Source: Candidatus Tayloriibacteriota bacterium (GTDB lineage: Bacteria > Patescibacteriota > Minisyncoccia > Phycocordibacterales > PALSA-1337). From it: a DNA stretch of 64,000 bases. The stretch covers positions 463 through 64,462 of the forward strand of contig JBAXUB010000002.1 of NCBI GenBank assembly GCA_037129895.1, read 5' to 3'. A program made the position numbers and the translations under genes. The notes under the pieces are model-generated. The model was given only the letters and a program-made list of their open reading frames with translations, did no database searches and was not told the DNA's origin. Below are positions 18,926-35,146 of the stretch, one piece after another; position 1 is the stretch's first letter, and every line of letters starts with the position of its first letter.

Positions 18926-21900
18926 CTATATACCTATGAAATTAAGTAGCGATGACCACACCCTCAAGAAGAATCCCTTCTTCTCTGCAGGCTTTACTGG
19001 CTTAACAACATCGATGGCTAGAGGAAATGCAGCGTTAGATGAAACAAGATAATATCTTCCCGGTTCACTAGGAGCAAGGATAGAAAGTGTAACCGCCAGC
19101 TTACCTTTTGTGCTGGTAAAATCGATAGGATTATTTTGATAATACGCTACAGTCTTTACATCCTTAAGCGGCACTAGGTTAATAGTCATCTTCTGACCTA
19201 CGTCGACTGTAATTCTCTGCACTAGAGTATCGACTGACTCATTAGCAATAGATACAGGAATCGTAGATGTACCGACGACTACCTGATATAGTCCCGGCAC
19301 TGTCGATGTGGCAGGGATCACTATCGGGACTGTACGTAATCTGACAACATCCCCAGCAGTTATGAGCCCTACACCAGCCATGAACTTCTTGAGTTCTGGA
19401 GATGAATTGAGTACCCTAGAAATATTTTCTGGTGCTGGATCGAATAGGAAAGCTCGTATCTCATTCTTGAATGAAAATGATCCATTACCTTCACCAAACT
19501 TCGGAAGACTTCCCAATGCCAATTTAGAAGGAATGATGAACGGCACAGACACCTTTCTCAGTAAGCCTGGTGCAAATAATCTGAGCAGGCTTTCCGAATC
19601 AAGAGTCGAGCCACCGGAATAGGGCCTATTCGGATTTGCAGGAACACTCGGCGCAACAGAATTCGATCTAATAACTGGCACATATCTACCCACAACAGCA
19701 ACACTACCACTTCTACCACTTGAATATACCGGTAACTCTGGACAACCCGTATTGTTACCAGTACCTGGATTGGCGATCGGTTCACTATATGAAGAATCAG
19801 TAAGAGAGATCGATCCAGCATCACCACCCTTTCCACAGGATGTAGAGTTACCACCATTAGATTGAACGATCGAACTTAGAGGACTACTGTATGAATTTAC
19901 TATCAGCAACGTACCTCCATTACCACCATTAGTTGAACCATCTGCACCATTTGATACGATCGCTGCAGTTGTTGATGTTGATATTGCGATATTACCTCCA
20001 TTACCACCGATAGAGCCACCAAGAGAAGCGCTAGCAGAAGATGTCCCTGTAATTACCAAATTTTCAAGTCCAAAGTTATATCCATTACTTCCTCCGTATG
20101 CACCATTTCCGGAGATTGATCCAGTCAAAGTATTATCTGTACCATCCACAATCACCCCATTCATTCCTATATACAGATCATTAGTTACACTCTCAGTAAG
20201 AGTCGTAGAGGCAAACAAAACTACTGCTTCATTGGCCGATGGTATCCTACCACTCGGTATATCTAAGCTAGTATCCGTAAACCAATTTTGCACATTGCTC
20301 CACAAACCATCTCCTGAAATATTACTAAAAGATATTGAATTCGGATATGAATAATATACGATCGAACCGAGGGTTGTACCACCTAGAGGTGCTGCAGATA
20401 GACCATATACATAAGAATTGCCGTTAACTGTACCTTGGTTTTTTGATGAATCATTGAAATAAGCATTAGCAGAAGTGACTCCAATATTTACCGAATGATC
20501 ATTGAATGACGTATCCCCTTTTATGTATCCAGTACTACTTGCAAAATCATTGAATACCCACCTTAGGATAGTACTACCTGAGTTATCTTTAGTCAGACCA
20601 GAAACATGGCCTGTTCCTCGGAATATTTCAGATCCAGAAAAACTTATTTCTCCAGATACAGCCACGAGATTATTATATGTAAGATCACCGTTTACTGTTC
20701 CTGAATTACTCGATAGATAATTTATGGAAACATTACCATTAACTGTTCCAGAATTTAGTGATTGATCATTCAATATCACAGTTCCATTCACGGTTCCAGA
20801 ATTTGTTGATGTTCCATTGAACGCTATATCTCCGACAATTATTCCGCTATTATCAATACGTCCGGCCACAGTTACTGGTGTTATTGAACTTGTTATAATG
20901 ATACCACCAGATTTGTTCGTAAGATTATTCGAAAATGTACCACCCGTTACCGTAGCGCCTGATTCTATGGTTGTACTACCAAGTGTAGTTTTTGTGTCGC
21001 TAGTTAGAGATCCGGTAACATGGATCGACCCACTCAATGTGGATGAACTAACTACAATATTATTCAAACTAGACACTAGACCAGTAGCTGTAACATTCTG
21101 TAATGAGAGGTTATTGGTACTACTACCTGTTATATTCCCACTAATTGAATAATAATGTCCTGCACCATCATCACCACGCAATGTAGTTGAAGTCGACACA
21201 GAACAATTACCAACTATATTCGCAGTTAGGTAATAATACGGCCTAGCAGCTTCATCTAGAGGTGTAGAGCAGTCTGTACTTATTGGCTGACTATTGTCAT
21301 ATGTAAACGAGACAGACTTTTCTGAAATATTATCTGTAGGATCAGAATGATTGCTTATACTCTTCAGGAATATCGTATGCGAACCGGCAACAGGCTTTGG
21401 TATATCACTGCCATTATTCGAACAGACTACCGCCTGATAATTGCCGCTATCCATCTTGTACTGACACGTATCATTCGTGCCCCATGAAATACTTGGAGAC
21501 CACCTCGTTATAGTTCCAGCCGCAGGAGAAGTGATCGATAGTACAGGTACGCCAGATCCACCACTGCCGATGATCGCATTCCACGCACTGAATATTCCAT
21601 TATTCAATGCTTGAAACGCATTCGTTGCTAGAGAATATGTAGCACCAGCCAAATTGACGATTGCCCCATTCACTGATTGGACGATCCAATGGACTCCATT
21701 ATGAGTAAAATCTGAAACAACTGTGAATACACCAGCCGTATATTGACGAGTAACATAACCTGTCACAGTACCATCATTCGTCGTGTCAGGACCAGAAAAC
21801 GTAGCATTACCGACGATCGTACCTAAACTAGAGTTCGTAGAAGAAGCACTAAATAATGCTGCTCCTGTCGATGTGCTGGTCACAGTCAAATATATCGAAT

Positions 21901-24900
21901 TTGAAGACGTAGCTAAGAATGTAGCTGAATCTACTACAGCTGAACTCGTAGTCGTAGAAATATTTCCACTCGTAATAGTTACACTATCTCCACCAGATGG
22001 AACGAACGTAGAATGAACTGTTGCCAATGAATCTGTCCACCAATTATTGACATCATTCCATTTACCAGTAACTCCATGTCCCGGAGCACTATCATTGAAG
22101 TACAGTCCAGTATAGTTATGATACGTAATCTGACCACTAACTACGCCACCGATTGGCCTAGCAACTGGTGAATATACATCTGCATCCCCTGTAATCGTGC
22201 CTAGATTTCTAGAATAATTATTGAGTATAACGTTACCGACTATAGTCGCACCGACATTGTTCGTACTAGAAGCATTGAATACAGCATCACCTTTGGTACT
22301 TCCAGAATTGGTACTTGATGCATTGAAAACCCAGTTGGTAATTTGGGAATTATTCGAATCATAAATATTTCCAGTAACAAAGCCCGTGCCTAGGAAACTG
22401 TCAGTTCCAGCAAATGATACTATACCAGCAGATCCAGTTAACATATTGAACTGTGCAGTACCAGTAACTGTACCCGAGTTTGTAGAAAAAGCGTTGAATA
22501 TCGCATTACCATTGACTGTACCGGTATTCGAGGATGTCGCATTAAAGGTAAATGTGCCGCCAGCAGTATTTATAATAGAATTATTGATCATACTCCCCAT
22601 TGCTGGATTATTGGCATTGATCGTACCATTATTCAAAACCTTTCCAGTCAAAGTCACAGATCCTGCAGAAATACTGCCGCCAGCATTGATCGTTGTACTT
22701 GCAAGTGAACCTGTACCATCTCCACTTATTACTCCTGTGACACTAACTGAACCAGTGACACTCGTCGAACTACTGATGATGAGGGCGCCTGGACCAGCTC
22801 CTGTCGTAGAAACCGCTCCTGTCACGATTATATTTGAAAGTGTTACACCATTATTATTGGAAGTAATATTTCCAGTGAGAGTATTTCCATTACCAGATAA
22901 TATAACGCCAGCGATAACAACATTGCAATTTCCAGAAATACTTGATCCTAACGCGTAGTTTCCTGCAAAAGCAAGAGACCCGCAAGAACTGATGGTCCCT
23001 GGTATTAGAGGAAATGCACCACCCACAAAGGAACCGAGATCAGTTCCGTTTGTAATAAAGTGTGCTAGTGCAGATAATGTGGTATTTGTCGTAGTTAGAC
23101 TGCCGGAATATGCTAGCCCGAGCGTAGACGTCGCGGAATATATATTGTTAGTCAAATTCAAATTTGTACCTAACATGTTTATGGTACCTCCTGTACCTGC
23201 ACTCGTCACATTGACTGTCGTCGATGTAGAAATCGTAATTATTCCACCACTACCAACTGATCCACTTGAGGCTCCAGCGGATCCAACGCCAGCACTTCCA
23301 GGTATGAGAGCCAGAAGACCCGTCGATGTTGCATTCGTAATAGAGATCGAACCAGTATCTCCACCATTACCAGCTGTACCAGATCCAGATTTGTTTCCAC
23401 CGGATCCTCCTTGCGAGGTTGTTGATCCTACAGTTGAACTCGCAGTTATCATAATATACCCTCCTCTACCTCCAGTGAAAGCTGTATCACCGTTACCACC
23501 ACTTGATAGTATCGACTGAATACTCGAACTAGAAATAACCAAATTACCTCCGTTTCCACCCACACTGCCAGAACCAACTGATCCATTGGCACTTACGCCA
23601 TTTGCAAAATTCGCGATAGTAATATTCCGGATAGTTGTCGTGCCATAGGCTGAAGCTCCAGCTGTAGTACTAGCAGCTGTAACAGCATAATTACTATTAC
23701 TTGAAGTTGCAGAAATAGTGTAATGGTTGTTACTTCCATCTATAGTTACGTTGTTCGCTTGAACATTGAAACATGTACCCGATATACCAGAAATGCTGGC
23801 TGACAAAGTATATACACCAACAAATGGCATTTTTCCACAACTAGAAATTGATCCAGGTATCAACGGAAACGCTCCGCCAGAATATGCGCCATAATTTGTA
23901 CCATTGGCAACTAGTGAAGCGAGAACTGACGTTGTTGCATTCGATACACCGAGAGAACCTGTATATGAAAGTATGAGAGATGAACTCGCTGTATATGTGC
24001 TATTGGAAAGATTCAAATTAATCCCGGAAATATTGATAGTACCACCAGCACCTATAGCAGAAATGCTCGCTGTTGTAGATGTAGCAACCGTAACTACTCC
24101 ACCAGCACCCAGTGAAGTACCAGTACCACCAGATGCAGAAATACTGAGCGGATCACTCGAGATACTAGTATATGATATTACTATTATACCATTAGCACCA
24201 TTACCTGTAATGATACTATTACTACTCAAACTTCCACCACCACCAGCACCATAAAGTCCGCCATTTGCACCCCATCCTCCAGTATTTCCGCAAGCATTAC
24301 CCCCACCTCCTCCTCCGCCACCAGAACCATGTGTCGAATCCCATTCAATTCCAGTACTTCCTATACCAGGCATGTACGGTGTCATACCATTACAAGCACC
24401 ATAACTCCCACCACCACCACCACCATTCGTTCCAGCACCACCTGTATATGGGCTTGAGCTTACACCCGCGGTACCACCACCAGCACCAAGATAGTTATCT
24501 CCACCAGATGTTCCGTTTGAATTACTAACACTTGCAGCATTGGCGCCTCCGCCATTACCCCCACCTCCTCCACCACCACGATTGCCAAACGTCGAACTAC
24601 CTCCATTACCTCCTTTTCCACGTGGTCCAGCCGCACCACCTCCACCACCAGCTGCCCATGACCCAGGTGTACCACCTCCATTACCACCAGAATATTTGAC
24701 TGTTCCTACACCAGCACTTGATTGACCACCCAAACTACCAGTTGAAATACCACCGCTTCCACCTTTTGCACCCACCCTTACTGCGGATCCTGAAATCGAT
24801 GCACAATTACTTGATGAATTACAGAAATACGAATCGGTTCCTGCGGCAGGAACAACATCTCCATTAAGACTTCCAAGACTGCCTTGTCCAACTCTATAGC

Positions 24901-27136
24901 TAACCGATGAACCAGCAGTTAAAACTAAATTTGATACTTTTGAATATCCACCACCTCCACCACCTCCAGCATTAGACGCGACCCCATACGTACCTCCACC
25001 ACCTCCGCCGATAACCTCGACAGTATTAGACGCACTATTCCAATCTGTTGGTACACTCCAAGAAGCTCCAGAGGTCAAATATATTCTCTTTGCAGTACTG
25101 ACAGAAGCAGAACCTCCTATAATCGTTGAGCTACCTACAATAATTACATTTCCAGCAGCCCCACCGACGCCTCCGTCACTATTACCACCATTTGCTGATA
25201 CCATAGCGATCGTGGTCGAAGAAACTATAACTGTACCACCAGCACCTCCTGCACCAGAGGACCCGGCTGAACCGTTCGCATTCACACCATTTGTAAAATT
25301 GGTAAACGTGAGATTCTGTATAGTTGTCGTACCATAAGCTGGAGCTCCAACTGTAGTACTTGCAGCAATCACGGCATAATTTGTATTACCGACGTTCGCA
25401 TTAACCGAATAATGATTCACACTCCCATCTATGGTGACATTATTGGCCTGAACATTGAAACAATTTCCATCAATATTTGAAATACTCTGAGTCAAAGTAT
25501 ATGTCCCCGCATACGAGATCGTACCACAAACATTTATAAGTCCTGGAAACAGTGGAAGTGTACCCCCAGAAAATGCACCATAATTTGTACCATTCACTAC
25601 GAGTGATGATAAGACTGATGTTGTAGCATTGGTCGTGGTTAATAGACCCGTATATGAGAGACTGAGTGTTGAACTCGCCGTGAATGATTTACCAGTAAAG
25701 TCAAGACTCGCTCCAGCAATATTGATAGTGCCACCTGTTCCAATAGCGGAGATACTGTCAGTGGTCGATGTTGCAACTGTTACTGTACCTCCAGACCCCA
25801 TCGATGTGCCAGTACCACCATTCGTAGTTATGCTACCTACTACAGAATTACCAGTGATTGAGATCGTCCCTGCGGCTGAACCGGACCCTGATACTGTACC
25901 CGTATATTGTGTATTGTAAATATTCAATACTTCAGCCGCAGAAAGAGGTCTAGACCAGATAGCAACTTCATCTAATGACCCATTGAAATATTCATAACCA
26001 CCTTTTCTACCTATCCATCCCATAGATGCCCCTCCATAATCTATTCCGGAATTACCACAGCCAGACGTACCAGCATTTACACCATCTATGTATATATTTA
26101 TGAGTGAGCCACTATAGACTCCAACAAGATTATGCCAGTTTCCATCAAGTATATTTATACTTCCATTTAACAAATAACATGATCCCCAACCACCATCATT
26201 AACTATGAACGCGGGACGCGTTCCTGAGAAAAATAGATTATAACCATCAGTACTATTGCTGTATGACACCATTTGCGGGTAACTAGAATTCTGTGAACCA
26301 CCTTTAACCCACACAGAAATACTAAGTGCTGAACTCGGTTTCAGTGCTGAAGCATTGGCGCCATAGGAAACACCCGAGCTATTCACAGAGATCGCCTTAT
26401 CTAATGCACCAGCCACCCCATAAGTAACAACCCCCTCTGATGTACCTGTAAATCCTTGACCCGAGCTATCGGTGAATGTTCCCGAGCTTTCATTCAAGTG
26501 ATACAGAAGGACATTACCAGTCATATCTATCCATCCATTAGAAACAGCACTATTTGGAAATGGTGACTTTACAGAGAGAGGCGATCCCCCATCTGACTTT
26601 ATACTACCACTTATGGTACTCGCATTTATTGAAATTATTCCACCAACTCCACCACTTGAACCCGAACCACCATTGGATATCACGTTGCCCGACATCGTTG
26701 ATGTTGATATCGTTATACTGCCCCCAGACCCACCTGATATACTCGAACTGTTATTGCCACTTGCATTCACTCCGTTGCTGAAATTCACAAATGAAATATT
26801 CAATATAGTCGTCGTTCCATACGCATTACCACCATCAGCACTATTCGTAGCGATGACTGCATATCCAGTATTACCTGATGTCGTCGTAGCTGAAAATCCT
26901 GCACCATTTATAGTCACACCGTTGGATGTAACTATAAAGCACGGTCCTGTAGTAGTAGCTATGCCAATATTCTGCGTTAGTGTATACGTTCCAGCCGAGG
27001 CCAATGTTCCACACGTAGTAATGTTACCCGGAGAAAGTGTGGCAGCATGAACACTCTGAGTCGACATAAAAACAAAAAAGAATGCAGAGGCCGCAATCGT
27101 GAAAATTCGTAGATATTTCGTGGTATTTCTTTGCAT
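18926..27136 (-). CDS. Giant secreted surface protein (2736 aa). Contains a signal peptide, at least four parallel beta-helix-type repeat modules (G(T/V)YTL(T/S)...CF(I/N)V(T/Q)(S/A)N(G/N)VTI(N/D)G), two SxN(S/T)GTVxG repeat blocks, a LamG/ConA-like domain and a roughly 150-aa poly-Gly tract.
   Basis: Single 8.2-kb ORF. N-terminal ...FVFMSTQSVHA|ATL. LamG-like stretch WHNLVGVYSGSLINIYIDGVNAG...GSLDEVAIWSRPLSAAEV. The internal DNA repeats are diverged, about 70% identical by eye. Confidence 0.85.
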   Translation of the reverse strand: MQRNTTKYLRIFTIAASAFFFVFMSTQSVHAATLSPGNITTCGTLASAGTYTLTQNIGIATTTGPCFIVTSNGVTINGAGFSATTTSGNTGYAVIATNSADGGNAYGTTTILNISFVNFSNGVNASGNNSSSISGGSGGSITISTSTMSGNVISNGGSGSSGGVGGIISINASTISGSIKSDGGSPLSVKSPFPNSAVSNGWIDMTGNVLLYHLNESSGTFTDSSGQGFTGTSEGVVTYGVAGALDKAISVNSSGVSYGANASALKPSSALSISVWVKGGSQNSSYPQMVSYSNSTDGYNLFFSGTRPAFIVNDGGWGSCYLLNGSINILDGNWHNLVGVYSGSLINIYIDGVNAGTSGCGNSGIDYGGASMGWIGRKGGYEYFNGSLDEVAIWSRPLSAAEVLNIYNTQYTGTVSGSGSAAGTISITGNSVVGSITTNGGTGTSMGSGGTVTVATSTTDSISAIGTGGTINIAGASLDFTGKSFTASSTLSLSYTGLLTTTNATTSVLSSLVVNGTNYGAFSGGTLPLFPGLINVCGTISYAGTYTLTQSISNIDGNCFNVQANNVTIDGSVNHYSVNANVGNTNYAVIAASTTVGAPAYGTTTIQNLTFTNFTNGVNANGSAGSSGAGGAGGTVIVSSTTIAMVSANGGNSDGGVGGAAGNVIIVGSSTIIGGSASVSTAKRIYLTSGASWSVPTDWNSASNTVEVIGGGGGGTYGVASNAGGGGGGGYSKVSNLVLTAGSSVSYRVGQGSLGSLNGDVVPAAGTDSYFCNSSSNCASISGSAVRVGAKGGSGGISTGSLGGQSSAGVGTVKYSGGNGGGTPGSWAAGGGGGAAGPRGKGGNGGSSTFGNRGGGGGGGNGGGANAASVSNSNGTSGGDNYLGAGGGTAGVSSSPYTGGAGTNGGGGGGSYGACNGMTPYMPGIGSTGIEWDSTHGSGGGGGGGGNACGNTGGWGANGGLYGAGGGGSLSSNSIITGNGANGIIVISYTSISSDPLSISASGGTGTSLGAGGVVTVATSTTASISAIGAGGTINISGINLNLSNSTYTASSSLILSYTGSLGVSNATTSVLASLVANGTNYGAYSGGAFPLIPGSISSCGKMPFVGVYTLSASISGISGTCFNVQANNVTIDGSNNHYTISATSSNSNYAVTAASTTAGASAYGTTTIRNITIANFANGVSANGSVGSGSVGGNGGNLVISSSSIQSILSSGGNGDTAFTGGRGGYIMITASSTVGSTTSQGGSGGNKSGSGTAGNGGDTGSISITNATSTGLLALIPGSAGVGSAGASSGSVGSGGIITISTSTTVNVTSAGTGGTINMLGTNLNLTNNIYSATSTLGLAYSGSLTTTNTTLSALAHFITNGTDLGSFVGGAFPLIPGTISSCGSLAFAGNYALGSSISGNCNVVIAGVILSGNGNTLTGNITSNNNGVTLSNIIVTGAVSTTGAGPGALIISSSTSVTGSVSVTGVISGDGTGSLASTTINAGGSISAGSVTLTGKVLNNGTINANNPAMGSMINNSIINTAGGTFTFNATSSNTGTVNGNAIFNAFSTNSGTVTGTAQFNMLTGSAGIVSFAGTDSFLGTGFVTGNIYDSNNSQITNWVFNASSTNSGSTKGDAVFNASSTNNVGATIVGNVILNNYSRNLGTITGDADVYSPVARPIGGVVSGQITYHNYTGLYFNDSAPGHGVTGKWNDVNNWWTDSLATVHSTFVPSGGDSVTITSGNISTTTSSAVVDSATFLATSSNSIYLTVTSTSTGAALFSASSTNSSLGTIVGNATFSGPDTTNDGTVTGYVTRQYTAGVFTVVSDFTHNGVHWIVQSVNGAIVNLAGATYSLATNAFQALNNGIFSAWNAIIGSGGSGVPVLSITSPAAGTITRWSPSISWGTNDTCQYKMDSGNYQAVVCSNNGSDIPKPVAGSHTIFLKSISNHSDPTDNISEKSVSFTYDNSQPISTDCSTPLDEAARPYYYLTANIVGNCSVSTSTTLRGDDGAGHYYSISGNITGSSTNNLSLQNVTATGLVSSLNNIVVSSSTLSGSIHVTGSLTSDTKTTLGSTTIESGATVTGGTFSNNLTNKSGGIIITSSITPVTVAGRIDNSGIIVGDIAFNGTSTNSGTVNGTVILNDQSLNSGTVNGNVSINYLSSNSGTVNGDLTYNNLVAVSGEISFSGSEIFRGTGHVSGLTKDNSGSTILRWVFNDFASSTGYIKGDTSFNDHSVNIGVTSANAYFNDSSKNQGTVNGNSYVYGLSAAPLGGTTLGSIVYYSYPNSISFSNISGDGLWSNVQNWFTDTSLDIPSGRIPSANEAVVLFASTTLTESVTNDLYIGMNGVIVDGTDNTLTGSISGNGAYGGSNGYNFGLENLVITGTSSASASLGGSIGGNGGNIAISTSTTAAIVSNGADGSTNGGNGGTLLIVNSYSSPLSSIVQSNGGNSTSCGKGGDAGSISLTDSSYSEPIANPGTGNNTGCPELPVYSSGRSGSVAVVGRYVPVIRSNSVAPSVPANPNRPYSGGSTLDSESLLRLFAPGLLRKVSVPFIIPSKLALGSLPKFGEGNGSFSFKNEIRAFLFDPAPENISRVLNSSPELKKFMAGVGLITAGDVVRLRTVPIVIPATSTVPGLYQVVVGTSTIPVSIANESVDTLVQRITVDVGQKMTINLVPLKDVKTVAYYQNNPIDFTSTKGKLAVTLSILAPSEPGRYYLVSSNAAFPLAIDVVKPVKPAEKKGFFLRVWSSLLNFIGI

Positions 27137-27783: not shown

Positions 27784-28082
27784 CTTGGAAGACAAAAAAT
27801 GACCATCTTGTAAGATTTCGTCGGACTTTTCATTAACAATTTTGAATCTATTTCTCAAATTATTAAGTTGCACCATTTCAATATGAATACACTGAGCCCA
27901 CTTCTTCAAAAAACTTCCGAATTGCGGCTTCATTACTGGCTAATTGTAACACAAAATTATACAAATATTGCTCATATACTGTGGATAAACACAGTTTTTC
28001 TGACAATATTCATTAACTATACTCTGTCACGCCATATAGATCACCGACGGTAAAATAATGGAGGTATGAGTTCAGTAAAAAC

Positions 28083-32421: not shown

Positions 32422-33756
32422 TCAAACCTGTCCCAAAAACGGTATACCAATTCTTTTGCGTTTTGTCTCACCTTTCAAGAGTTTTGACCTTCTCTCTGAC
32501 TCCTCACCACGAGAACCACGATGCGCCCCGTCATTCATGGCTCTGAAGCTAGACCCGAGAAAAACACTATGTTTCCCATATCTTTGGTCGATATGATCAA
32601 CTGCTTCGTGTATCTTTTGTACATGATCTAGTATCTCTGAATGTCCGAACATGTCTATTGTAGAGATATTCTCATGCGAAAGTTCCATCAACGTCACTCC
32701 TGTCGCACGGTATTGGATACCAGTACGATATATAGTATTCCAAACTTCTCTTATGGTTTCGATGATCTTCTCTGGTATACAGACAGTCTGTGATAACTTG
32801 AGCTCTAGTGCATGATATCGAAAATCCTGAGTCTTTAGAAAGAATGTAAAACGCTTTGTATATAGATGATGGCGGCGAAGTTTGATGCATGCATTTTCTA
32901 CATTTTTAGAAAGCTGAGAGAATATGAAACTCTTGTCCATTGACGGTGGTGTGAACGTCTTTGTCTTACTGATAGATGCATAATCATGTTTCTCGCCGAG
33001 AACCAGAGGATATACGAACTTGCCATTCAATTCTGCATGAATCTCCTGAAATGGTTTTGATAGATGGAGTTTAACCCATTCAGAAGTTTTCGTAGCAAAG
33101 TCGAGGCTCGTGACTATGCCCTGCTTATGGAGATAACTCTCCGTGTTTGGACCGATACCCCAGATCTTACCTACAGGCCATTTCGATAGATATAGGTGGA
33201 GATTATATCCAGGAATGATAGTGAGCCCTGATGGCTTCTTCCACTTCGAACCGATCTTCGCTGTAACTTTATTGACAGAAAGACCTATAGAAAATGTCAT
33301 GCCGAGTTCAGTATCCAAGTCGTGTTTTATCTTCATTGCCATCTCCTCATAGGACATATTGTTAGGTCTCCGCATACCAGTTAGATCAGCGAAGCATTCA
33401 TCGATACTGTATTCCTCTATATCATTGGTATACCTGCGGACAATCTCATACATCCGTTGTGAATATAGACTGTAAGTTTCATAATCTGATGGTAATATGA
33501 TGACATCTGGACAGAGCTTCCGAATATCTGAAAGTCGCATGGCTCGAGTGACACCACGCGCCTTTGCTTCATATGACATCGATGAAGCTATACCACGCTC
33601 TCTACCCGTAACTACTGGTTTACCTCGTAATGCTGGATTCTTTGCCACTTCGCATGATGCGAAAAATGAATCACCATCTACATGGAGTATCGCGCGCGGA
33701 AAAGAGTGGTGAGTGAGGATTTGCAAGGGAGAATTAGGAATTAGGAATAGGAGCAA
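32422..33756 (-). CDS. dinB: Y-family DNA polymerase (DinB/UmuC-like). Catalytic residues are present.
   Basis: ILHVDGDSFFASCE and YSIDECFADLTG motifs. Confidence 0.85.
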   Translation of the reverse strand: MLLFLIPNSPLQILTHHSFPRAILHVDGDSFFASCEVAKNPALRGKPVVTGRERGIASSMSYEAKARGVTRAMRLSDIRKLCPDVIILPSDYETYSLYSQRMYEIVRRYTNDIEEYSIDECFADLTGMRRPNNMSYEEMAMKIKHDLDTELGMTFSIGLSVNKVTAKIGSKWKKPSGLTIIPGYNLHLYLSKWPVGKIWGIGPNTESYLHKQGIVTSLDFATKTSEWVKLHLSKPFQEIHAELNGKFVYPLVLGEKHDYASISKTKTFTPPSMDKSFIFSQLSKNVENACIKLRRHHLYTKRFTFFLKTQDFRYHALELKLSQTVCIPEKIIETIREVWNTIYRTGIQYRATGVTLMELSHENISTIDMFGHSEILDHVQKIHEAVDHIDQRYGKHSVFLGSSFRAMNDGAHRGSRGEESERRSKLLKGETKRKRIGIPFLGQV

Positions 33757-33883
33757 GAAAGAGGACGACTCATAGAGAAAGTATCAATGCGAATAAAACA
33801 CGCACACCTAAGATGTCATTAAAATTAGCATTTCCCCGCAACCAGCCGATTTGATTTACGACTATTATGATCAAACCTGGCAC

Positions 33884-34450
33884 TTATAAATACTTCCTGA
33901 TAACACCCTTCACGACTGCTGCTATCCTCAGATCATTCTCTGGATATATCGGACCAAAATTCTTGTTAGCCGGTTCTAACCAGACCTTACCATCAGTCTT
34001 TCTGTAGTATTTCATCGTCCAACCACCATCGACTTCGGCAATGACAATATTTCCAATCTTTGGCTCCTTGCCTCTCTCGACTATGACCAGATCACCCTCT
34101 TGTATACCCGCATCTATCATCGAGTCACCCTTTACCTCCAGCATGTATGTGGCTTCTTTACGTTCGATCATATAATCATCTATACTCATAGTATCTACCA
34201 ACTCCTCTTCTGCCGCAGTTGGAAAACCAGCTTCTACCAAACCTAGAACTGGAATCTCACCAAATAGTTTCTTCGGTACGAGCCTACCACTAGAATCCTT
34301 GTCTAACATGCCTTCGACTACTAGTTTATTGACTAGTTTGTAGACTGCGTTTTTCGACTTGAAACCTAGTAGCTTCATGATCTCTGCATAGCTAGGCATG
34401 CGTTTGGTGTCTCTGTAAAACTTTATTATTTTGTCTTTGTAATTATTCAT
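33884..34450 (-). CDS. lexA: LexA repressor.
   Basis: N-terminal wHTH. C-terminal S24 peptidase: VKGDSMIDAGI, Ala-Gly cleavage-site region VEAGFPT, and a Lys in RKTDGKVWLEP. Confidence 0.85.
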   Translation of the reverse strand: MNNYKDKIIKFYRDTKRMPSYAEIMKLLGFKSKNAVYKLVNKLVVEGMLDKDSSGRLVPKKLFGEIPVLGLVEAGFPTAAEEELVDTMSIDDYMIERKEATYMLEVKGDSMIDAGIQEGDLVIVERGKEPKIGNIVIAEVDGGWTMKYYRKTDGKVWLEPANKNFGPIYPENDLRIAAVVKGVIRKYL

Positions 34451-34469: not shown

Positions 34470-34715
34470 TTAAAACATAAACGTACTAACTAAACTGCTG
34501 AAGAAACTGACTTTACTAGGAGCGAGTCGAGCAAGTTGTGACCTCAAAGTCTTGTGTCGTAATGCCTGTCGGGCATAAGGAATACCTTTGATGATACATA
34601 GATCGATCTCGCGGTTGAGTCTACCTATCTCACTACGAATTGTTCTGATGGTTTGATACTTGCTCATGGATAAATTTATTAATTGATAATATTTTTCTCG
34701 CAACTCCTGCAACAT
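34470..34715 (-). CDS. Hypothetical 81-aa basic protein with a hydrophobic C-terminal tail. First ORF of the SOS transcript.
   Basis: ORF track. Lies about 40 nt downstream of the SOS-box promoter. Confidence 0.35.
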   Translation of the reverse strand: MLQELREKYYQLINLSMSKYQTIRTIRSEIGRLNREIDLCIIKGIPYARQALRHKTLRSQLARLAPSKVSFFSSLVSTFMF

Positions 34716-34753
34716 TAGCTCAATGCGTTTTCCTGCTTCTTTGTTGTATATAC

Positions 34754-34783
34754 ATTATAGGTGAACGGGTGTTCACCTGTCAA
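34754..34783 (-). promoter_or_regulatory. Minus-strand consensus promoter TTGACA-N18-TATAAT. The spacer consists of the 20-bp perfect palindrome AGGTGAAC-GGGT-GTTCACCT (34759-34778), a GAAC-N4-GTTC LexA/Cheo box.
   Basis: Reverse complement reads TTGACAggtgaacacccgttcaccTATAAT. Confidence 0.75.
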
Positions 34784-34971
34784 AGAATACCTGTGGATAA
34801 CTAAATATGTAACGCATCGTGGGCTATTTTCCCGTAGTGCGCCGAGAATGGGTAGCCAGCGATTAGCGCTCGCAGGCGACGGAGGGAAATTACCTCACTA
34901 TATGCTATCTATTAATAACCAAAATATAATTTACTATAGTGACACGACCCTTTCCAAAACATTCATTTTTG

Positions 34972-35073
34972 AAATCATGCCATAGCATGATTTTAGAAAA
35001 TTTGTCATTTTTAATATCATATTATAGCGGTAAAATTGAATCCAAATCTACAAATCATGCCACGGCATGATTT
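34972..35073. repeat. Two copies of a 22-bp hairpin-forming palindrome AAATCATGCC(AT/AC)GGCATGATTT at 34972-34993 and 35052-35073. Copy 1 is followed by TTTTAGAAAATTT.
   Basis: Seen directly in sequence. Located in a 430-bp gene-free interval. Confidence 0.6.
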
Positions 35074-35146
35074 AAAAATGGGCGGGTCTTAGGTCAGATA
35101 ACTCCTCACAACTACAGAAAAATGCGGAGCCAAAATATCAAAGAAG

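Follow-up and report, generated by a model that had tools for sequence, protein, structure and literature searches.

A conserved small basic protein encoded ahead of lexA in a predicted autoregulated SOS operon of Candidatus Taylorbacteria, and its possible role as a LexA accessory

DnaA acts as a transcription factor at promoter-proximal DnaA boxes, as at dnaA, nrdAB and sda in E. coli and B. subtilis, and the SOS network in Patescibacteria was reportedly treated by Sanchez-Osuna, Barbe and Erill (Environ Microbiol, 2017). Small proteins encoded beside SOS repressor genes are also described. In Acinetobacter, DdrR is a genus-restricted protein of 78-81 aa whose gene always lies beside that of the LexA-like UmuDAb; it shares the UmuDAb operator and enhances DNA binding by UmuDAb (PMC7273328, PMC11332147), and it has been reported as confined to Acinetobacter (PMC7273328). 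The Gram-positive SOS division inhibitors YneA, SosA, ChiZ and DivS have one transmembrane segment and an extracellular active part, some of them with LysM, and are encoded divergently from lexA (PMC6851548).

The locus studied here lies on the minus strand of a 64,000-nucleotide stretch of DNA, referred to below as the window. Behind a consensus promoter come a gene for a conserved 65-aa basic helical-hairpin protein (34470..34667), lexA (33884..34450) and a gene for a Y-family, DinB-like DNA polymerase (32422..33756), so the gene order given in the earlier note, with a small ORF first and lexA and dinB after it, is borne out. Our interpretation, which is a tentative one, is that this locus represents the master SOS operon, under autoregulation, of a bacterium of the Paceibacteria class (Candidatus Taylorbacteria) and that the small protein is a LexA accessory. 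The lexA gene begins 19 nt past the small gene and encodes 188 aa; on TIGR00498 its product reaches 129 bits, the cutoff being 111. The cleavage site A74-G75 and the catalytic residues S110 and K147 are invariant in 46 orthologues, and the protein thus has both the Ala-Gly cleavage site and the Ser/Lys dyad of a LexA orthologue. The polymerase carries IMS and IMS_C domains; its ORF opens with a TTG located 25 residues ahead of the conserved domain, which leaves the true start codon uncertain. The 127-nt gap between lexA and the polymerase gene (33757-33883) has no promoter-like or terminator-like site, and the two genes are probably cotranscribed. Among 70 related loci, only 17 have a polymerase gene after lexA.

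At the promoter, minus-strand positions 34783-34754 read TTGACA, an 18-nt spacer and TATAAT, and the longer stretch 34800-34754 reads TTATCCACAg-gtattct-TTGACA-GGTGAACACCCGTTCACC-TATAAT. A scan of 32-36 kb found 11 promoter-like sites, among which only this promoter, with its -35 hexamer at 34778..34783 and its -10 hexamer at 34754..34759, scored 12/12, the others reaching at most 9/12. Relatives have TTGACA or TTGCA(G/A) at -35, and in all 68 loci analysed the -10 is either TATAAT (32 loci) or TATACT (36 loci). The spacer contains the perfect palindrome AGGTGAAC-ACCC-GTTCACCT and is filled by the predicted LexA operator A-GGTGAAC-ACCC-GTTCACC-T (34759..34778, minus strand), a 20-bp palindrome, AGGTGAACACCCGTTCACCT, that has one base in common with each promoter hexamer. 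This palindrome occurs once in the window, with no other match at three or fewer mismatches, and none of 100 shuffles gave a match. A weight matrix built from 98 distinct related operators gave 29.8 for the lexA-promoter site and 5.9 for the next best site in the 64 kb. The consensus promoter with a Gram-positive-type LexA operator as its spacer, as the earlier note had described it down to the 18-nt spacer and the perfect 20-bp palindrome, is therefore real. The bare motif GAAC-N4-GTTC is found three times in the window, where 0.99 occurrences are expected. Further such boxes, which the earlier note had suggested looking for across the genome, are represented within the window by two more copies (8564 and 38977); both are intragenic and lack the GGT/ACC flanks.

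In related promoters GAAC-N4-GTTC is exact in 66 of 70 cases, has one mismatch in three and is masked in one. Over the 98 related operators there is essentially no variation in the arms GGTGAAC/GTTCACC, while the central N4 is free to vary, a footprint such as a dimeric repressor would leave. The site is thus a palindromic operator that overlaps the core promoter and is kept across orthologous promoters, as is characteristic of LexA-regulated promoters. None of the 68 loci analysed has a second operator between the small gene and lexA, so that autoregulation of lexA must run through the upstream promoter. We propose that the single operator, of presumed high affinity, lies in the spacer of a sigma-70-type promoter such that a bound LexA dimer would block RNA polymerase. 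DNA damage would then lead to RecA-stimulated self-cleavage of LexA and to release of the promoter. According to established SOS biology, derepression would raise the small protein, LexA and the polymerase together, from a transcript predicted to encode, in this order, the 65-aa basic helical-hairpin protein, LexA and the translesion polymerase.

From the position of the -10 hexamer, transcription is predicted to start near 34747, which gives a 5' leader of about 80 nt (34668..34747, minus strand). In 18 of 68 loci (L010, L025, L026, L036, L042 and 13 others) the small gene has its ATG exactly 6 nt past the -10, implying a leaderless mRNA and giving independent support for the predicted start site. 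Similarly, lexA directly after the promoter appears leaderless in five loci among the matches listed (L168, L179, L192, L078 and L143), with its ATG 6-9 nt past the -10. Folding of the leader was no better than that of shuffled sequences (z +1.29), the leader had no match in Rfam, and no known RNA or structure was found in the leader or in the upstream region. The leaders of L005, L007, L008, L014 and L032 have a start-stop ORF of one or two codons at the predicted transcription start, reading ATG CAR TAA, ATG TAG or ATG TAC TAG, which may be what is left of an ancestral leaderless start. Farther upstream, between the gene for 6-phosphogluconolactonase and the lexA promoter, two copies of a 27-nt palindrome, AAATCATGCC..GGCATGATTT (34966-34999 and 35052-35078), make up an inverted repeat some 120 nt long. 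Rfam returned only sub-threshold matches to plant microRNAs for these palindromes, which may be terminators or a small repeat element. Long inverted repeats of unrelated sequence occupy the same position in L001, L004 and L005.

Just upstream of the -35 lies TTATCCACA (34792..34800, minus strand), a 9-mer identical to the DnaA-box consensus and centred at about -49 from the predicted start; this element is missing from the earlier note. In the 68 unbiased species-level loci it is exact in 57 and has one mismatch in 11. Its orientation is constant across all 68, and in 63 of them it ends 13-16 nt before GTGAAC. Thus the element matches the DnaA-box 9-mer at a conserved position and in a conserved orientation. 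It is no general feature of these sequences, since the related loci (399 kb) hold 65 exact copies, of which 57 are at the lexA-operon promoter. Among the matches listed it is also found at lexA promoters without the small gene, which indicates that it belongs to the lexA promoter. Judging from the sequence, DnaA probably binds TTATCCACA, and binding at about -49 would let it feed replication status into the lexA promoter; a regulator other than DnaA could also bind there. The lexA promoter has only one such 9-mer, and a search of 1.17 Mb of related DNA brought up neither a dnaA gene nor a DnaA-box cluster. A cluster of four boxes in L025 was considered as an origin and rejected, as it is coding sequence. 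Among the papers searched, none combines a DnaA box with the lexA promoter, and none combines TTATCCACA with Patescibacteria. A second intergenic copy in the window, TTATCCACAG (27980-27988, minus strand), is upstream of a 262-aa ORF that is followed by the gene for a 2736-aa repetitive surface-type protein (18926-27136); the spacing between it and the nearest TATAAT is not the one found at the lexA promoter.

The first ORF had been described as encoding an 81-aa basic protein with a hydrophobic C-terminal tail. Such an ORF is present (34470-34715), and the product is indeed basic (pI 11.3) with a hydrophobic C-terminus; it is the length that had to be revised. All homologues start at MSK, corresponding to residue 17 of the 81-aa ORF (MSKYQ at 34667), and the 16-residue N-terminal extension is not conserved among them, so that the real product has 65 aa (34470-34667). 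An identical protein at NCBI (100%, from a Candidatus Taylorbacteria metagenome-assembled genome; P0001, WCP09_00725) is annotated with this same length. Homologues were retrieved in growing numbers by a word-indexed search (10), an exhaustive search (73 cluster representatives) and a profile search (226 proteins). Those listed are mostly of 63-76 aa, the longest having 101 aa; all are named "hypothetical protein" and come from Patescibacteria, and no fusion to a known domain or Pfam domain was found among them. The small proteins form an unannotated family of 59-77 aa.

The family is under clear coding constraint. An ATG start is at the aligned position in all 71 retrieved copies of the small gene, and the frame is intact at 59-70 codons in the 68 species-level loci. 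Mean pairwise differences at codon positions 1, 2 and 3 are 0.37, 0.24 and 0.61, which is a coding signature. In 52 diverse members the columns M1, E13, N18, I21, D22, G28, Y31 and H38 are invariant and four more are nearly so. The earlier note had allowed that the ORF might not be conserved in relatives and might be only a long 5' UTR; with the ORF intact in 68/68 species-level loci and a coding substitution pattern, this does not hold.

Linkage of the small gene to lexA was followed in two sets of loci, several loci being from assemblies of the Hainich aquifer. Retrieval based on the protein, with one genome per species, gave 70 loci. All belong to Patescibacteria, and most carry the labels Taylor-, Nomura-, Vogelbacteria or Paceibacterota. 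Wherever a species-level locus has downstream room (67 of 67), lexA comes after the small gene on the same strand, so homologues of the small ORF do occur upstream of lexA elsewhere, as was to be checked according to the earlier note. The gap between the two genes has a median of 22 nt, with several overlaps, which suggests coupled translation. The second set came from a metagenome search with the DNA motif TTATCCACA-N6-26-GTGAAC-N4-GTTCAC, which is blind to gene content and returned at least 120 loci. Among the 120 matches listed, 89 have the small gene and lexA, 8 have lexA alone and 5 have a small gene cut by the contig end; the remaining 18 show neither gene, mostly for lack of room, although 7 of these 18 do have room. 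Two loci among the matches listed, L078 and L143, have the order promoter, lexA, small gene, both genes being in one operon, and so what stays constant is that the two genes share an operon, whichever of them comes first. No copy of the small gene away from lexA was found among the loci examined. On the other hand, the eight listed loci with lexA and no adjacent small gene indicate that LexA can work without the small protein in cis. A fusion of the small protein to LexA was considered for such loci and rejected, because their LexA has only 2-4 extra N-terminal residues and no hairpin.

Among the matches listed there are also five loci (L107, L156, L147, L091 and L162) in which the promoter with the 9-mer and the LexA operator precedes other genes. 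These encode a 615-aa restriction-enzyme-like protein (L107), a DNA methyltransferase with a partner gene (L156), a 573-aa P-loop helicase-like protein (L147), a 212-aa protein (L091) and a leaderless ORF of 36 aa (L162). They may be further members of the SOS regulon or mobile elements that borrow the promoter.

AlphaFold, run with the family alignment, predicts a helical hairpin with helices at residues 3-27 and 32-48 and pLDDT above 90, followed by a low-confidence tail. The family has a median pI of 10.7 and a net charge of about +9, as against about -5 for the C-terminal domain of LexA. Over 52 members the maximum 19-residue Kyte-Doolittle mean is 1.07 (median 0.40), the threshold for transmembrane segments being about 1.6, and the protein is predicted to be cytoplasmic, with no transmembrane segment. 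The C-terminal tail is hydrophobic and variable. Its reading as a strict peptide motif was discarded, the last residue being F in only 65 of 136 sequences, as was its reading as a membrane-targeting amphipathic helix, the hydrophobic moment being 0.33 against 0.25 +/- 0.12 for shuffled tails. Scans of Pfam, NCBIfam, PHROGs and PADLOC gave no match for the small protein. Sequence and fold searches of the PDB and of viral models returned only generic hairpins, and no similarity in sequence or fold to DinI, RecX, SulA or gp7 of phage GIL01 was found in the PDB. Residues 16-48 (about 34524-34622 in the window) carry the pattern ID-x4-KG-x6-A-x-RHK. It is similar to the C-terminal helix-turn-helix of ribosomal protein bS20, identity reaching up to 47% across 30 residues in certain members of the family; this resemblance is not statistically supported.

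By analogy with DdrR and UmuDAb, the small protein could be a LexA accessory, and we favour this form of the "another damage-response factor" of the earlier note, with a confidence that falls somewhat short of even. This reading is preferred because the invariant is predicted cotranscription with lexA in either gene order, and because a cationic protein predicted to be cytoplasmic would be paired with an anionic LexA C-terminal domain. Through the tight or overlapping gene spacing the small protein would be made in step with LexA, and it would act on LexA or on the LexA-DNA complex, for example as a co-repressor or as a modulator of cleavage; its hydrophobic tail may serve as a degradation tag. 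Covariation between the small protein and LexA was analysed by mean-field DCA at an effective depth of 76 sequences: gap columns dominated at first, and after they were filtered, permuted pairings scored as high. Moreover, adjacency to lexA fits any SOS effector equally.

A broader form of the LexA-accessory reading would be a three-input SOS switch of Paceibacteria, in which the proteins of 59-77 aa would be obligate partners of LexA, serving as co-repressors or modulating its cleavage, and DnaA would directly tune the promoter via the box at about -49. We regard this combination as doubtful; if true, such a module would tie the response to DNA damage to the state of replication in very small genomes.

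In the main rival reading, the small protein might instead be a checkpoint effector, cytoplasmic or loosely membrane-associated, that delays division like SulA, YneA or SosA and is cleared via its hydrophobic C-terminus once LexA represses again. It is predicted to be LexA-controlled and adjoins lexA, the same synteny that revealed the Gram-positive division inhibitors (PMC6851548); it is small and lineage-restricted with a variable hydrophobic tail; and no viral homologues of it were found, which gives it the look of a host function. However, the best 19-residue hydropathy stays well below that of a transmembrane segment, and there is no LysM or SulA domain: the small protein had no Pfam match, and SulA was absent from its PDB sequence matches at E values up to 10 and from the 50 Foldseek matches listed. 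The tail is not significantly more amphipathic than its shuffled versions. In addition, the gene is predicted to be cotranscribed with lexA and not divergent from it, and the product would therefore appear each time LexA is produced, an awkward property in a division inhibitor. The proposal that the ORF encodes an analogue of SulA or YneA thus finds no positive support, and we consider a role in division unlikely.

Less probable still is that the small protein is a general nucleic-acid binder, possibly derived from or mimicking the C-terminal helix-turn-helix of bS20, which would act on DNA, RNA or ribosomes during damage and independently of LexA. Its strongly basic character would suit this role. 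In addition, the family profile finds its best PDB sequence match in bS20, with KG-x6-A-x-RHK in common; when 1.17 Mb of related DNA was searched with E. coli bS20, the small genes were the only matches, and only 1 of 20,000 composition-matched shuffles of bS20 scored as well. Nevertheless, on the scale of the database the match falls short of significance (E 0.5), hhalign gives it a probability of 16%, and none of the 52 members matches the Pfam model of bS20. Binding of nucleic acids in general would also leave the strict linkage to lexA unexplained. Finally, the ORF could be a translational device only, a leader ORF that loads ribosomes for lexA with an irrelevant peptide sequence or, in a stronger form, a chance ORF in a long 5' UTR, as the tight or overlapping spacing, its place at the start of a leaderless mRNA in 18 of 68 loci and the leaderless lexA of listed loci without the small gene might suggest, but this is very improbable and largely refuted by the conservation seen in the alignments, with eight invariant and four nearly invariant columns in 52 diverse members and most variation at the third codon position, as well as by the confidently predicted hairpin and by the two listed loci in which the small gene comes after lexA.

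The small protein belongs to an unannotated family predicted to be cotranscribed with lexA wherever it was found, across one class of the Candidate Phyla Radiation, in organisms with a small set of regulators and hardly any genetics. Binding of DnaA to the 9-mer, should it occur, would provide a direct link from replication initiation to the SOS set-point. The promoter, the operator, lexA and the polymerase gene form a standard autoregulated SOS unit with a Gram-positive-type box, and as LexA autoregulation is textbook knowledge the promoter itself is ordinary. Relative to the literature covered, what appears to be new is the small-protein family with its strict operon linkage, together with the fixed DnaA-box-like element.

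With LexA-autoregulated lexA(-dinB) operons that have Gram-positive-type GAAC-N4-GTTC (Cheo) boxes, among which the reported SOS network of Patescibacteria is counted, the locus has in common a cleavable LexA, a palindromic GAAC-N4-GTTC operator that overlaps the promoter it controls, and a downstream gene for a translesion polymerase. It differs from them in the longer conserved arms GGTGAAC/GTTCACC, in an operator that exactly fills the spacer of a consensus promoter, in that lexA is not the first cistron, and in the DnaA-box-like 9-mer fixed at about -49. The likeness to DnaA-regulated promoters lies in the exact TTATCCACA, whose position and orientation shortly before the -35 are fixed; a difference is that the lexA promoter offers a single candidate box. 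Like YneA, SosA, ChiZ and DivS, the small protein is small, fast-evolving, predicted to be LexA-regulated and encoded beside lexA; unlike them, it has neither a transmembrane segment nor LysM, and its gene is codirectional within the lexA operon. The likeness to DdrR, drawn from published descriptions of that protein, is that of a small, lineage-restricted protein with no known domains, whose gene is adjacent to that of a self-cleaving repressor and shares its operator, an arrangement found here in 67/67 genome loci and in 89 of the 120 metagenome matches listed. However, ddrR is divergently transcribed, whereas the small gene is predicted to share the lexA mRNA, and the repressor here is a true LexA. 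Thus, if the small protein modulates LexA, it would be the second small partner to tune an SOS repressor after DdrR with UmuDAb, this time with a true LexA.
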